Below, piece after piece: positions 9,392 to 14,324 of a stretch of DNA of 64,000 bases (position 1 is its first letter; the number at the start of each line of letters is the position of its first letter). The translations under genes were made by a program, and so were the position numbers. Source of the stretch: Caedibacter sp. 37-49 (GTDB lineage Bacteria > Pseudomonadota > Alphaproteobacteria > Caedimonadales > Caedimonadaceae); NCBI GenBank assembly GCA_001898725.1, contig MKUV01000008.1, positions 42,211 to 106,210 of the forward strand, in the 5' to 3' direction. The notes under the pieces are model-generated. The model ran no database searches. It had not been told where the DNA came from and worked only from the letters and a program-made list of their open reading frames with translations.

Positions 9392-9512
9392 GAAAAAAAT
9401 GAAACATTTATCAAGCATTTATTTTTCAAGGAGTTATTTTAGGGGACGTCTATAAAATCCTTAAAATGTTTCATTTCTTTTCACAAGTTATTCATTAACA
9501 AATTGAATTTTC

Positions 9513-9541
9513 TTGATATTTGTATCAAATCATGATAGTAT
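9513..9541 (+). promoter_or_regulatory. Sigma70-type promoter pointing into the palindrome/GIY-YIG locus
   Basis: TTGATA(9513-9518)-N17-TAGTAT(9536-9541), overlapping a TATAAT at 9539-9544. Confidence 0.5.
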
Positions 9542-9547
9542 AATTAA

Positions 9548-9633
9548 AGATGATCAGAGAGAAAGTTCTTTCCTTACTAGGATGCGTGCCCTACTCCAGT
9601 AATTCTTTCAGCTTTCGCTATGGAGCCATCTAA
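9548..9633 (+). other. Candidate ~85-nt structured RNA or leaderless 27-aa ORF
   Basis: Starts where the upstream promoter predicts the TSS. Nested pairings AGATG/CATCT, GAAAGT/GCTTTC, TTACT.GGA/TCC.AGTAA. ATG 9550 to TAA 9633 encodes MIREKVLSLLGCVPYSSNSFSFRYGAI. Confidence 0.3.
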
Positions 9634-9795
9634 AAAAATAGTAAGATAGGAAGTCGACACCTAAATTATTAAAAAACAAACACTTAACGTTCATTTTTGA
9701 GCGAATGCTCTTGTTTTGCCTGGTGAAAAGGCAGAAAAAGGGAATGAAAAGCAACGGGGTAAGTGACTTTGAAAAGTTTTTCTTTGTTACTTTTG

Positions 9796-9917
9796 GATTC
9801 CCGCTTTCGCGGGAATGACACACGGGTAAACCTGTCTGTGCGTGAAGAGTACGGTGGGTGGTAGCGTGAGAAGGAGTTTGAAACCTTTCTAATGTCATTC
9901 CCGCGAAAGCGGGAATC
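9796..9917. repeat. REP doublet: perfect 25-bp inverted repeat with 72-nt spacer
   Basis: 9796-9820 is the exact reverse complement of 9893-9917 (TGTCATTCCCGCGAAAGCGGGAATC). Confidence 0.9.
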
Positions 9918-10071
9918 GAGGAAGCGTTGAAAGACATCCAATGGTAATGATCGACACGAGGAAAAAGATAACGCCTTTCTTCGTCATCCTTAGACTTGTC
10001 CCGAGGATCTCAGACAGCCAAAAGATGTTGCGAGGTGTCAGAAAAAACAAAAGGTTTAAAAGAGAAAACAG

Positions 10072-10356
10072 ATGAATCACTCCGTTTATATCATGACAAA
10101 TAAACCTCATGGCATTCTCTATGTAGGCATGACTAATAACTTGATGCAGCGTGTTTGGGAACATAATGAGGGAGCCGAAGATGGTTTTACAAAAAGGTAC
10201 AACCTAACAACGCTTGTCTTTTATGAATTTTTTGAAACTCCAGGTGAAGCTATCAAACGTGAGAAGAGTCTAAAGCGTTATTCGAGAGAATGGAAAATAA
10301 ATCTTATTCAAGAAAAGAATAGTGATTGGAAAGATTTATATGAAGAACTTCTTTAG
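10072..10356 (+). CDS. Stand-alone small GIY-YIG nuclease (UPF0213/Slx1-like family)
   Basis: SVYIMTN-KPHGILYVGMTNNL, RVWEH, GFTKRYN, LVFYE, AIKREKSLK, WKINLI...N.DW.DL. The catalytic-type Tyr, Arg, His and Glu are present. Confidence 0.92.
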   Translation: MNHSVYIMTNKPHGILYVGMTNNLMQRVWEHNEGAEDGFTKRYNLTTLVFYEFFETPGEAIKREKSLKRYSREWKINLIQEKNSDWKDLYEELL

Positions 10357-10358
10357 GC

Positions 10359-10873
10359 GATAGGCAAGATCTATCTATTGCTTGAGATCCTAGGCACAAG
10401 GCCTAGGATGACCAAAGGTTGTGAACAAAGAATGATCGCTGACGAGGACTGGAAGGATGTAGATTGATGGCAATAGGAACAAGCAATCACTCGGTTGTCA
10501 TCCTCGGGCTTGTCCCGAGGATCTCAGGCAGCCTGACGATGCCACGAGATACCAGAAGGCCTAAGACGTACGTGAGAGGCACGGCAAAAAAGTTAAGAAG
10601 CAACGGTGTTTAAAACTTAGAGAAGTTTTTCACTTTTGTAGATGGATTCCTGCCTTTGCGGGAATGAGACAAGAGAAGCAAGATATTCGCATCTCTCTAA
10701 CGTATTGAAAAAGTATGGTGGAGCAACCACTTTATTATCATCCTCGTGACCCTGCTACGCCAAAGGCTTTGCCGTGGCGAGAAATGCTGATCCAGGAAGC
10801 GTTGAAAGGTGATAGGCAAGGTCTATCTGTTGCTTAAGATCCTAGGCACAAGGCCTAGGATGACTAAAGGTTG
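10359..10873 (+). repeat. 63-bp direct repeat module (10359-10421 and 10811-10873)
   Basis: GATAGGCAAG...CCTAGGCACAAGGCCTAGGATGAC.AAAGGTTG; 4 mismatches, all transitions. Confidence 0.9.
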
Positions 10874-11223
10874 GATGGAACAAGGGCTCGTTGGCAAGGA
10901 TAATGCCTGGTGAGAAGAGACGTAATATCTGTGATGACCAAAGGTTGGAGATAAGAAAGCTCGGTGACGAGGGATGAAAACGTTGATGAGTGACAATAGG
11001 AACAAGCGATCACCTCACCGTCATCCCCGCGAAAGCGGGGATCTAGGAAGAGCTGGAAGGTAACAAATGAGGATTGATAAGAAGAGGAATGAACTGGTTC
11101 TTCTCTTCGTCATCCTCGGGCTTGTCCCGAGGATCTCAGGCAACCTGACGATGTTGATAATTGCCATAAAACGCATGCCATCTGTGAGAACATCGTATTT
11201 TTAAAATTTCTCTGTTTCTATTA

Positions 11224-11532
11224 TTATGATTTAGGCCTACTTGCTGGGGTACTTCCTGACGTCGTGCTAGTTGACGTCGCGCTGCTTGATCCAGTAACAG
11301 TTGATGCATGTTGATGTTCACTGCCTCTAGGGAGTTCATTAATCTTTTTCTGAGTCTTTTTCGAATTCTTTTGCTGGCTTTCTATTTCTTCATCGATAAT
11401 GTTCACCATTTTATTTATATCAGCTTGCTCAGTAGGATTGTTTGAGGCAGAACTTTGGTTATTAAATGTGTTTAAGACAAAAATAGCAAAAAATGAAAAT
11501 AAAATTATATTTACTGGCATAATAATCTCCAC
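11224..11532 (-). CDS. Small secreted hypothetical protein (coiled coil plus Ser/Thr-rich tail)
   Basis: Hydrophobic N-terminus IILFSFFAIFVL, charged helical middle, low-complexity C-terminus. Confidence 0.55.
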   Translation of the reverse strand: MEIIMPVNIILFSFFAIFVLNTFNNQSSASNNPTEQADINKMVNIIDEEIESQQKNSKKTQKKINELPRGSEHQHASTVTGSSSATSTSTTSGSTPASRPKS

Positions 11533-11676
11533 ATAAATTCAATATATTATTTGCAAATAGTATTCTGCCAGCATTAAAATTTATTATATTTATAACAGTG
11601 TAAAACAATAAAAAAACCACCCTATCTTAGATAAAGTGGCTTTCAGTTTTTGGATCCGTTTTTTATTTTTTATTCT

Positions 11677-12396
11677 CTAGTGTTTCGCTATCTCTTCGTT
11701 CGCTTGCTTTAAAAGTTCAAGCGACATCTTGCCATGCAGCACCAATTCTTTTGCTGTTGAACCTGAATGATAAGGATATTTACAAGTATGGGTGAATGCT
11801 GTTGTCCCTTCGCCAACTTGCCCTTTAATCGTTCCTTGTGGAGCATTTCCGACGAGAGATTTTGCCCCTCCTAATAAACCTTTTAAAACATTACAAACCG
11901 CCGCTTTAGCACCCTGTTGTTTGACTTCCCACCAGGGTCCATTACCAATTTTCAATTTATCTTGGCATAAAGCGCTGGACATTGCTTCAAAGGTGAGCAC
12001 AGGACAGACTGCACCTTTTAAAGAAGGCGGTGTTTGGATTTTTCCTTCTAAAGAAAATTCATCAATCATAGCAGCTTTTTTCCAATCTTCAGGAAGTTTA
12101 TAATGGCATACGAGCATCCCTTCCACCTTATCTGATTCTGTACCACTATATGTTTTATCATCCTGTCTAAGCGCTTTTGAAAAAACACTACAAACACTTG
12201 ATAATGCTCCCAAAATATCAACAGGTCGCTGATAAACAACTGTTGTCTGCGGTATTACATTATAACTACCGACAACAGGGCAAAGATAATAAGCCATATC
12301 TTTTGCTGACAGCGTAGGACAATCTGCTTTAGCTTGAGGTGATGCAAAGGCAGACAATAAAACAAAAAAACTAGGAATAATCTTCTTCATTTTCAA
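11677..12396 (-). CDS. Secreted Cys-rich hypothetical protein with two internal repeats
   Basis: Signal peptide ending AKA; two copies of CPxLxxxxMxxxLC...VCxV...CxY. Confidence 0.75.
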   Translation of the reverse strand: MKMKKIIPSFFVLLSAFASPQAKADCPTLSAKDMAYYLCPVVGSYNVIPQTTVVYQRPVDILGALSSVCSVFSKALRQDDKTYSGTESDKVEGMLVCHYKLPEDWKKAAMIDEFSLEGKIQTPPSLKGAVCPVLTFEAMSSALCQDKLKIGNGPWWEVKQQGAKAAVCNVLKGLLGGAKSLVGNAPQGTIKGQVGEGTTAFTHTCKYPYHSGSTAKELVLHGKMSLELLKQANEEIAKH

Positions 12397-12405
12397 TCCT
12401 ATCGT

Positions 12406-12936
12406 TTATTTTATAATTCCACATTTTCTGCCAAGACCTGTTAACAGGTTGCCAACTTTAGATCCAAGAAGCCCTTCTTTCTTTGAAGATTCTTTAAATT
12501 TAGTAGCCAAACTTCCTAATTGAGTACTCTTGTCAAGCATATCTTCAATTTTTTCACCACTTACGACAACTTTTCCTAACGCAGCTTTTAATTCTTTTTC
12601 CCTACTTTCAAATACTTGCTTTGTTGGGCAAACATATGCATGTCCTTTACCATCTTGAAGTTTTTCACTCATTTGCGTTGCCGTTTCTAAAGCTTCACTG
12701 ATTGCATGCATTTCAGTTTCAATTTCGGCTTTCTGTTGTTGCGAAAGAGGCTTTTTTAATTCTAAAAGTAGTTTCTCTTGCCTCTCTGCAAGACGTCCCA
12801 TTTCAAGGTTAAGATCTAATAATACTTGCCCTAAATCAACTTGATAAGTAGCACTTGCAATAACCGTGTTTTCACTTCCGCCTAATAAGGCAAAAGAAAG
12901 TAGTGAAACTGAAAGTAATTTTTTATTTATTAACAT
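12406..12936 (-). CDS. Secreted coiled-coil hypothetical protein
   Basis: Signal peptide ending ASA; E/K/L heptad-rich core; 9 nt from the next gene, so probably co-transcribed. Confidence 0.7.
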   Translation of the reverse strand: MLINKKLLSVSLLSFALLGGSENTVIASATYQVDLGQVLLDLNLEMGRLAERQEKLLLELKKPLSQQQKAEIETEMHAISEALETATQMSEKLQDGKGHAYVCPTKQVFESREKELKAALGKVVVSGEKIEDMLDKSTQLGSLATKFKESSKKEGLLGSKVGNLLTGLGRKCGIIK

Positions 12937-12980
12937 TTAGGTCCCCTTATAATTTCATAATTATAGAGTAGTCCTAAAAA

Positions 12981-12996
12981 GTTAATTTCTGCTTAA
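12981..12996 (-). promoter_or_regulatory. CtrA-like box
   Basis: Minus strand TTAA-GCAGAAA-TTAAC, about 45 nt upstream of the 12936 start. Chance matches are likely in AT-rich DNA. Confidence 0.3.
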
Positions 12997-13040
12997 TTAA
13001 GAAATCACTTTTAAATATTCATGCAGATGCACAAAAACAT

Positions 13041-14324
13041 TTAGTTTATAAAAGGTTTAATTTTATTTAAAGTAAGTAACAACTTAGCCTGCTTAAGAGT
13101 ACGTTCAGGTGTTTTCAAATCAGGAAAAGTCTTTAGGACTTGACTATACATTGTGTATAAATATTTATAAAGAAAGGTTGGTGTCGCGTCTCCTACTTCT
13201 TCCAAATACGCTTCAAAAATCTCGCATTGCTTGTAGCTTCGCAAACCAGCATCTGTCATGCTTGAATTGAGACAAAGTGCTCCAGCATAGACGTATGTAT
13301 AAGACAAAATATGTAACAAAGGCTCAAATGTTTTATGCTTCGCAAGCTCTATAGAAATTTTTCTTGCCTTTTCAAGCTTTTCTTCAAAATTTGAGGTTTT
13401 CTCGATATAATTACTGTGCTTTACAAATTCCTTTGATCTCTCTTCATGATCAGTCACTTCACCAAGAGTAAAGTTTGCAGATTCTGGTTTCAATTCAAAC
13501 AATTGATTAACATCAATTTGCATATCAAGCAGGGCATGTAATGCAAAAGGACGACCTTTGGACATGGCGATAGCCGCAAAGCTTAAAGCTTTATCAAAAT
13601 CAGGTTGTAATTCAAACCTCTCTTGCTGTGTTCTTACCCAAGAAAAGAGCGTTTCTTTTAAACGGCCAAAGAAAGCTGATGTTACTTTTTGAGGAAGGAT
13701 TTCCAATCCATATAGCAAAGCCATAATTTCATGATTAACACCTAAAGTATCATCAAGTGCAGTTGAAGATGCCGTATTAAAAATTTCTTTGAGTTCTTGA
13801 TCCGGTCTTTTAGATAATCTTGCTTTTGTTAAAACAATTGCTAAGGGGATTAAAGGGTGTTTCACATCTTTCGCTGATTGTAAAAGTTCTAATTCACCTG
13901 TGAATGTGTTTTGGGCGTCCTTTGTTAACGGCAGTTTGGATTCATCTGATGAAACAGCGAGTTCACATATGGATTTATTAATCACAAATTTGATGTTTAA
14001 ATCCTGAGCAAGTAATAGTTTCCATTGATTAAATTCTTGTGGTACCGCCCGACGAAGCCACCTTTGGTTAGAGTTCGCGATTATTTTTTGTTTTGCAGCC
14101 TCATTTGCAACAGCTTGCCACCGCCTTTCAACACCACTGCCTCTAACAAGTTCATGATCTGGAAGAAATGAAAAAACATGCGTTAACAATTCATCCGGAA
14201 GAACTTGAAAATTTCCATATCCTTTGTGACTTATGTCCACTTCATCAGCTAAAGTCGCATATGATGCGTTTGAAAATGCTAATAAAAAACTTATCAATGC
14301 AAAAAAATTTGGAAATAGTCTCAT
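13041..14324 (-). CDS. F-box domain protein with signal peptide (eukaryote-like effector candidate)
   Basis: LPDELLTHVFSFLPDHELVRGSGVERRWQAVAN matches the F-box consensus LPxE(I/L)LxxIFSFL...VCRRW. The N-terminal signal ends ASYA; the remainder is helical. Confidence 0.8.
   Translation of the reverse strand: MRLFPNFFALISFLLAFSNASYATLADEVDISHKGYGNFQVLPDELLTHVFSFLPDHELVRGSGVERRWQAVANEAAKQKIIANSNQRWLRRAVPQEFNQWKLLLAQDLNIKFVINKSICELAVSSDESKLPLTKDAQNTFTGELELLQSAKDVKHPLIPLAIVLTKARLSKRPDQELKEIFNTASSTALDDTLGVNHEIMALLYGLEILPQKVTSAFFGRLKETLFSWVRTQQERFELQPDFDKALSFAAIAMSKGRPFALHALLDMQIDVNQLFELKPESANFTLGEVTDHEERSKEFVKHSNYIEKTSNFEEKLEKARKISIELAKHKTFEPLLHILSYTYVYAGALCLNSSMTDAGLRSYKQCEIFEAYLEEVGDATPTFLYKYLYTMYSQVLKTFPDLKTPERTLKQAKLLLTLNKIKPFIN

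Follow-up and report, generated by a model that had tools for sequence, protein, structure and literature searches.

Small nucleases paired with hairpin repeats have recently been described in bacteria as Ssn nucleases, the repeats being known as NTS or SRM (Chenal et al., Nat Commun 2025; PMC11893778). The locus considered here lies in a stretch of 64,000 nucleotides (nt) of the alphaproteobacterium Caedibacter sp. 37-49, hereafter the window, which corresponds to C8:42211-106210 of a draft genome, G000, of 1.83 Mb, 36.6% GC and 78 contigs. It comprises a gene for a GIY-YIG nuclease of 94 amino acids (aa), called ssn below, within an array of GTCAT-tagged hairpins. Very probably, it is an Ssn/SRM system, with ssn coding for an SsnA-type endonuclease and the tagged hairpins serving as its SRMs; it was assigned to that system because each of the testable defining features was found.

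The NTS repeat of N. meningitidis (CGTCATTCCCGCGMAVGCGGGAATCYRG) is an oriented form of the dRS3 palindrome, of whose copies it represents nearly half (PMC11893778). Across bacteria NTS associates with one gene, ssnA, which codes for a 94-aa single-domain GIY-YIG protein (CDD cd10448; NMV_0044 in N. meningitidis), and SRMs are found near 71% of the ssnA homologues and on both sides in 42% (PMC11893778). SsnA binds NTS solely as single-stranded DNA (ssDNA) and cuts a few nucleotides upstream of it, leaving the reverse strand, double-stranded DNA (dsDNA) and RNA uncut, and its cleavage activity is abolished by the Y6A, Y17A and E64A substitutions (PMC11893778). Cleavage is governed by three bases upstream of the stem and binding by the C that follows the stem, and activity is lost when the sequence of the stem is altered with its structure kept (PMC11893778). 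Binding of ssDNA hairpins in vitro, with a cut just upstream of the tag, has been obtained for four species, including the alphaproteobacterium Wolbachia (PMC11893778). In Neisseria the enzyme reduces transformation by NTS-bearing DNA, and this restriction of transforming ssDNA is the only role demonstrated (PMC11893778). SRM-rich genomes are found among host-associated Alphaproteobacteria, namely Wolbachia and Rickettsia, and the discussion of that study likens the NTS-ssnA-NTS arrangement to insertion sequences (IS200) and to RAYT/REP/BIME (PMC11893778).

The CGTC-tagged REPs had been defined earlier as mainly alphaproteobacterial elements that mainly form head-to-head dimers and occur as clusters in Neisseria and Wolbachia; their CGTC-1 family includes RPE-6 of Rickettsia conorii, and no dedicated enzyme was found for them at that time (Di Nocera et al., BMC Genomics 2013; PMC3733652). 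The repeats of the window resemble CGTC-1 in their (C/T)GTC tag, their stem-loop of 20-26 nt, their arrangement chiefly as head-to-head dimers, their large clusters and their occurrence mostly in Alphaproteobacteria. They differ in that a partner gene is identified, both here and in the more recent study (PMC11893778). An initial annotation of the window, made from the letters alone, had connected its hairpins to CGTC REPs, and this connection holds, as CGTC-1 corresponds to dRS3 (PMC3733652) and nearly half of the dRS3 copies are NTS (PMC11893778). It had also claimed that such repeats have no demonstrated dedicated mobiliser and that the mechanism is unproven, a claim of novelty that is outdated: the association, the ssDNA cleavage, its dependence on the tag and the analogy with RAYT/REP/IS200 were all published in 2025 (PMC11893778). 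Nor is Slx1, which cuts branched DNA and had been put forward for comparison, the closest parallel, Ssn being inactive on dsDNA.

REPtrons consist of a RAYT (TnpA-REP, an HUH Y1 transposase) flanked by GTAG-tagged REPs or BIMEs. The locus of the window shares with them a single-copy nuclease gene between inverted copies of a genome-wide tagged hairpin, a recognition of ssDNA hairpins that is predicted here by homology, and hairpin variants that alternate in BIME-like clusters. In contrast with REPtrons, the bracketed gene encodes a GIY-YIG hydrolase and not an HUH enzyme, so that neither a covalent intermediate nor strand transfer is known; the tag, (T/C)GTCAT, has GTC and not GTAG or GTGG; and no Y1/HUH transposase (PF01797) was matched in the whole of G000 at E<=0.1, while control matches were obtained in 7 of 14 genomes. 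Membership of the REPtron class was rejected on these grounds, and the analogy is functional only, because the HUH enzyme and the GTAG tag are absent. That no transposase lies nearby had been noted initially and is confirmed, the nearest recombinase gene being of the XerC/D type, 7.4 kb off.

The ssn gene and its bracketing hairpins

The product of ssn matched the GIY-YIG profile of Pfam (PF01541) with E=1.2e-16 over residues 3-77 (model positions 2-78 of 78), and domain profile searches found no second domain in it. The gene was correctly read as intact, and its catalytic residues are present. Among 26 homologues compared, Y17, R27, H31 and E64 are invariant and Y6 is nearly so. The protein has the same length as SsnA of N. 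meningitidis, falls within the size range of the Ssn family (<150 aa, single-domain GIY-YIG), and has Y6, Y17 and E64 under identical numbering, an equivalence that is based on numbering and the GIY-YIG motif and not on direct alignment. Its best matches in the PDB, which has no Ssn structure among its entries, were UPF0213 proteins of unknown function (E about 1e-4), and no Neisseria protein was named among the matches listed for it (120 homologues). A GIY-YIG homing endonuclease of the I-TevI type was considered and rejected, as the 94 residues include no extra C-terminal domain, the context is an intergenic repeat array, and TIGR01453 scored 20 bits against a cut-off of 56.

The gene is the sole part of the region 9488-11160 that is unique in the genome: repeat homology halts at about 10043-10068 and restarts at 10355. 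Searches for a second copy with tblastn and a 26-sequence profile returned uvrC only, which leaves one intact ssn-type gene in G000. A weak PF01541 fragment (20.6 bits, with one internal TAA) occurs at C10:9294-9422, with a small hairpin array some 3 kb away at C10:6041-6415; the fragment was not picked up by the Ssn profile.

Around ssn, a scan anchored on the tag, which covered all 64 kb at up to 5 substitutions, found nine GTCAT-tagged, GC-rich hairpins, all within 9796-11135 (Table 1). In agreement with the initial annotation, the window holds no further copies at that threshold, and none appeared with the published SRM pattern at up to 1 substitution. The hairpins fall into three classes, T1 (GTCATYCYCGCGRARGCGGGRATC; stem of 8 base pairs (bp), loop of 4 nt), T2a (GTCATCCTCGGGCTTGTCCCGAGGATC; stem of 9 bp, loop of 5 nt) and T2b (GTCATCCTAGGCCTTGTGCCTAGGATC), the last of which has the architecture of T2a with compensated stem changes. 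By tag, the order of the array is T1-, T1+, T2a+ (decayed), ssn, T2b-, T2a+, T1- (decayed), T2b-, a T2b remnant, T1+ and T2a+. With three of its hairpins at 26/28 identity to the NTS 28-mer, T1 is, as far as the letters tell, essentially the NTS of Neisseria. T1 and T2 have in common the tag and the base of the stem, GTCATCC...GGATC, which are the positions reported as critical in PMC11893778.

Table 1. Features of the hairpin array, by window position.
Feature	Coordinates	Strand	Remarks
Leader repeat, about 250 nt, head of the array	9491-9746	+	Basis: nhmmer, promoter scan, covariation
T1 hairpin (NTS-type), GTCATTCCCGCGAAAGCGGGAATC	9796-9819	-	Perfect 8-bp stem; 26/28 vs N. meningitidis NTS 28-mer
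T1 hairpin (NTS-type)	9894-9917	+	Head-to-head with copy at 9796; 26/28 vs NTS 28-mer
T2a hairpin, decayed, GTCATCCTTAGACTTGTCCCGAGGATC	9983-10009	+	Upstream bracket of ssn, tag away from gene; 3 mismatches to consensus
ssn, single-domain GIY-YIG nuclease, 94 aa	10072-10356	+	Y6, Y17, R27, H31, E64 intact
T2b hairpin, GTCATCCTAGGCCTTGTGCCTAGGATC	10386-10412	-	Downstream bracket of ssn, tag away from gene; kept with gene in congener G002
T2a hairpin	10497-10523	+	Head-to-head with copy at 10386; tag-anchored scan
T1 hairpin, decayed	10645-10668	-	With flanks (10642-10671) exact match to published SRM pattern
T2b hairpin	10838-10864	-	Tag-anchored scan
T2b tail remnant, GATGACCAAAGGTTGGA, without hairpin	10933-10949	-	Repeat family D8
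T1 hairpin, GTCATCCCCGCGAAAGCGGGGATC	11020-11043	+	With flanks (11019-11046) exact match to published SRM pattern; 26/28 vs NTS
T2a hairpin, final array element	11109-11135	+	Repeat homology ends near 11160

The gene thus lies between inverted hairpins with their tags facing outward, as in the published Ssn/SRM arrangement, the nearest tagged hairpin being 63 nt away on the upstream side and 30 nt on the downstream side. Inverted palindromes bracketing the gene had been claimed initially; the geometry stands, and the upstream copy turns out to be a decayed hairpin that has lost three stem pairs (dG -4.6 vs -15.2 for intact copies). The reverse/forward doublets noted at the same time are real and number three head-to-head pairs (9796/9894, 10386/10497 and 10838/11020). 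The locus departs from the described systems in that a second class, T2a/T2b, and not the NTS-type hairpin directly brackets the gene, and in that three hairpin classes accompany one nuclease gene.

Tagged hairpins, including the T1 copies at 9796 and 9894, place an SRM within 500 bp on each side of ssn. With the exact pattern of PMC11893778, an SRM was found within this distance on the 3' side only (10642-10671), and the 5' side (9793-9820) requires one substitution. Taken literally, the published pattern recovers 2 of the 9 hairpins, because the local 3' flanks (ATCGAG, ATCTCA) miss one degenerate position, and it was therefore employed for the enrichment test only.

Mosaic arrays and their leader

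At up to 2 mismatches, G000 holds 43 T1 and 35 T2 hairpins, and a looser catalogue comprises about 92 tagged hairpins in 29 clusters. As in the published Ssn/SRM systems, the copies run into the dozens and are grouped in intergenic arrays. The genome-wide consensus of T1 is TGTCATcCcCGCGaAaGCGGGgATCCA. Reversed control patterns gave 0 matches across 41 genomes, and the SRM pattern matched G000 22 times as opposed to 1-3 times in each of 10 dinucleotide shuffles, an enrichment of about 10-fold; the hairpin family is not due to chance. In Rfam, no family matched the hairpins or the leader described below, the top entry, FtrB, scoring 26 bits, short of its gathering score of 66.

All modules of the region 9488-11160 except ssn recur 10-25 times in other arrays of G000, and the order of hairpin types recurs as well. 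The arrays are mosaics of common modules, as in the neisserial intergenic mosaic elements (NIMEs), reportedly described by Parkhill and colleagues in 2000 as repeat units bounded by dRS3 inverted repeats. The likeness lies in homologous spacer modules between dRS3/NTS-type hairpins, which are shuffled among arrays; the module sequences differ, and the arrays of the window carry a polar, promoter-bearing leader at one end, for which we know of no described equivalent in NIMEs. Roughly half of the hairpin clusters, along with many fragments of the leader, are located no more than 300 nt from the end of a contig (e.g. on C7, C11, C12, C49, C50, C58, C61, C75, C76 and C78), and the true numbers of clusters and copies are therefore higher than counted. 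Breaks in the assembly of G000 are due in large part to these repeats.

In G000, nhmmer detected 14 full copies of the leader and about 9 partial ones, each at one end of an array and directed into it; copies outside the window include C8:147106-147367, C8:118959-119219, C66:3493-3758 and C45:44457-44720. It contains a near-invariant promoter-like site, TTGATA-N17-TAGTCT/TAGTAT (TTCTTGATATTTGTATC...TATGGTAGTCT), which reads TTGATA-N17-TAGTAT at 9513-9541 of the window, and a promoter scan found no other promoter-like site on the + strand upstream of ssn. Hairpins downstream of this site covary, with both sides changed at three stem pairs in 5-6 of 14 sequences. A short ATG-initiated frame of 27-32 codons is open in three leader copies translated by eye, with no conservation of the encoded peptide. 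The leader family is restricted to the genus: each of the four congeneric genomes has 22-26 matches, and no match was obtained in nine other relatives. Judging from these features, the leader looks like a family of small RNAs or promoter cassettes, and since ssn and the leader are co-oriented in G000 and in the congener G002, ssn is probably expressed from the promoter of the leader that heads its array.

A promoter-bearing leader, a feature that sets these arrays apart from the described Ssn/SRM systems, hints that transcription may matter for hairpins becoming single-stranded. The arrays might accordingly be polar transcribed units, in which transcription driven by the leader into the SRMs and ssn would expose hairpins of the displaced strand to the nuclease and create programmed nicking or recombination hot spots beside genes for secreted or host-interaction proteins; or else the leaders might be a multicopy family of small RNAs whose 3' ends would be set by SRM hairpins. 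We regard this pair of possibilities as quite improbable.

A conserved promoter at the head of every array, directed inward, would also fit hairpins with mainly RNA-level or structural functions in leader-driven transcripts, as terminators, stabilisers of mRNA or parts of small RNAs, in which case the nuclease would merely be embedded or regulated there and would not act on them. Such roles are known for REP elements elsewhere (PMC3733652), and the leader family extends to the congener G001, where ssn is absent and hairpins are nearly so. However, this explanation does not account for brackets that have the same tag and the same orientation but different stems in unrelated genomes (see below), and four members of the family bind and cleave the hairpins in vitro, with RNA inactive as a substrate (PMC11893778). 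It appears very improbable.

Homologues in relatives and in the genus

An ssn homologue is present in 14 of 40 relatives, in a patchy distribution without fit to taxonomy. Outward-tagged hairpins were found on both sides of the gene at L001, L002, L007, L011, L013, L018, L019 and L021, and on one side at L004, L005, L009, L010 and L015; among the fetched loci, no tagged hairpin flanks the homologue at L006, L008, L012, L014 and L020. The stem sequences of the bracketing hairpins vary between loci, as in L001 (GTCATCCCGGGCTTGTCCCGGGAT / ...ATGAC), L011 (GTCACCCCCGGACTTGTTCCGGGGGT / ...GTGAC) and L013 (GTCATCCCCGCGAAGGCGGGGAT / ...ATGAC), while the tag and its orientation are constant. This pattern agrees with the published figures of 42% for both sides and 71% for at least one side, and the locus independently reproduces the Ssn/SRM association in alphaproteobacterial genomes.

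The bracket recurs around homologues in other genomes, and 28 of the 29 clusters of G000 are without a nuclease gene. One gene copy for so many clusters, together with UPF0213 proteins of unknown function as the nearest relatives in the PDB, might suggest a coincidence, in which a small gene of the GIY-YIG type with no relation to the repeats (such as one for a YhbQ-like housekeeping protein or a homing endonuclease that has degenerated) happens to sit in a repeat-rich intergenic region. This is scarcely credible. The bracket is seen at no fewer than nine independent loci in several alphaproteobacterial families; G038 (L013) has only 39 such hairpins in a genome of 4.2 Mb, and two of them flank the gene at distances of 48 nt (upstream) and 16 nt (downstream); and the large-scale association already published contradicts chance (PMC11893778). 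Given the recurrence of the bracket in other genomes, coincidence is effectively refuted.

Within the genus, all four combinations of arrays and gene occur: ssn may accompany the arrays or be missing, it may sit at a different locus, and it may be present in decayed copies. These combinations bear on whether Ssn spreads the repeats or only uses them. Counted as T1 and T2 at ≤2 mismatches, hairpins number 78 in G000, with one intact ssn upstream of a lipoprotein gene; 22 in G002, with one intact ssn (81% aa identity) at a different locus and two decayed copies; 77 in G003, with no intact ssn; and 7 in G001, with no ssn. The neighbours of the intact G002 gene are orthologues of genes of G000:C55. 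G000 and G002 share, with 80% nucleotide identity, a conserved cassette composed of the gene, the 39 nt that precede it and the T2b hairpin. One decayed copy of G002 (C6:70516-70818; L021/L032) is a frameshifted pseudogene whose residues 2-60 are read in another frame than residues 68-90, and it lies between a forward and a reverse T1 hairpin; the third copy (C44:1260-1466) is more decayed. In G003, the region C1:1040687-1041316 (L027 988-1616) is orthologous to 9500-10420 of the window and has a leader upstream of the gene for a 17-kDa-antigen-like lipoprotein, then T2a(+), a spacer of 112 nt, T2b(-) and T2a(+), without ssn; all that is left of the gene in this genome is a stop-containing relic of 23 aa at C1:1656648-1656716. 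Within the genus, the nuclease cassette shifts between loci or is acquired and lost, and the repeats persist without the nuclease, as G003 retains about 77 hairpins and no intact ssn.

These observations bear on the idea that the SRM-ssn-SRM cassette is an active selfish mobile element, in which Ssn would act like a transposase and excise or copy hairpin-bounded DNA, gene-less units included, in the manner of RAYT/REPIN or IS200/IS605. The idea, also raised in PMC11893778, would extend the Ssn/SRM explanation and does not exclude it. It draws support from the different positions of ssn in two congeners, from the conserved unit of upstream sequence, gene and T2b hairpin, from the decayed copies of G002, one of them within T1 hairpins, from the G003 locus that has the leader and the T2a(+)/T2b(-) pair with the gene missing, and from the patchy distribution of ssn. 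On the other side, the genome has a single intact copy, and the congener comparison revealed no clean insertion footprint, no target duplication and no identical second copy. The comparison with congeners for empty sites, which the initial annotation had proposed, yielded none that is clean: the gene-less T2a/T2b pair of G003 was rejected as such since its 112-nt spacer is unrelated and marks no precise excision or insertion, and G000:C55 has no intergenic DNA homologous to the ssn locus of G002. The two cuts would be made on opposite strands, which is not the case for IS200/IS605, and no strand-transfer chemistry is known for a GIY-YIG hydrolase. Moreover, the arrays seem to spread as larger modules (leader, T1, T1 and T2a blocks), which also fits recombination or duplication. 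An active mobile element is thus rather unlikely.

Predicted activity, role and neighbouring genes

If the enzyme of the window behaves like its homologues, it would ignore duplex DNA and RNA, and its binding to a hairpin would require the GTCAT-reading strand to be single-stranded, a state that could arise, for instance, in replication, in DNA that is incoming or recombines, or on a strand displaced by transcription. With Mg2+, the cut would fall on the GTCAT strand, a few bases 5' to the tag; cleavage would depend on the three bases that precede the stem, and binding on the C that follows it. The ssn gene has the usual SRM-ssn-SRM layout, inside one of about 29 mosaic arrays, and is probably transcribed from the promoter of the leader. 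The initial proposal that the nuclease recognises and cuts its bracketing hairpins thereby gains support from membership of the Ssn family and from the in-vitro data on four species (PMC11893778), and we infer by analogy that the enzyme cuts T1 and/or T2. Both may be substrates, because the tag and the base of the stem, i.e., the critical positions, are common to the two. One nuclease gene with three hairpin classes (NTS-like T1, T2a and T2b) constitutes a compact natural test case for specificity.

Several points weigh against the assignment to the Ssn/SRM systems. Formal membership is defined in PMC11893778 by a blastp match to the characterised SsnA (CAX49033.1) at E<1e-10 with at least 75% coverage, or by cd10448 as the top CDD match, whereas the placement made here draws on the Pfam domain, the length, the numbering of the catalytic residues and the hairpins. 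The hairpins that directly bracket ssn are T2 and not the NTS-like T1, the upstream one being decayed, while a change of stem sequence with the structure kept abolishes activity (PMC11893778). In the congener G003, about 77 hairpins are retained despite the lack of an intact ssn, so that the nuclease is not required for the repeats to persist. Finally, a role in natural transformation, the only one demonstrated, is doubtful in this organism.

A function in transformation is unlikely here, in contrast to Neisseria. Our best guess is that the Ssn/SRM system of the window would have a modulating effect on recombination or on the exchange of DNA at loci flanked by arrays, and that the enzyme would not serve as a true transposase. 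That the nuclease spreads or reshuffles the hairpins, as had been proposed initially, is unsupported, the sole demonstrated role being the restriction of transforming ssDNA in Neisseria.

Downstream, the array adjoins several minus-strand open reading frames (ORFs) in 11224-14324 of the window. The first of them (11224-11532) encodes 102 aa; those at 11677-12396 and 12406-12936 have no Pfam match, and none of these three ORFs was found at the orthologous locus of three congeners. The same region also codes for a protein of 427 aa in which an F-box-like domain was matched (PF12937, E=4e-8). The ORFs beside the array resemble the pattern of Neisseria, where NTS clusters lie next to host-interaction genes. 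Together, a small, AT-rich genome and the F-box and secreted orphan genes nearby suggest a host-associated lifestyle.

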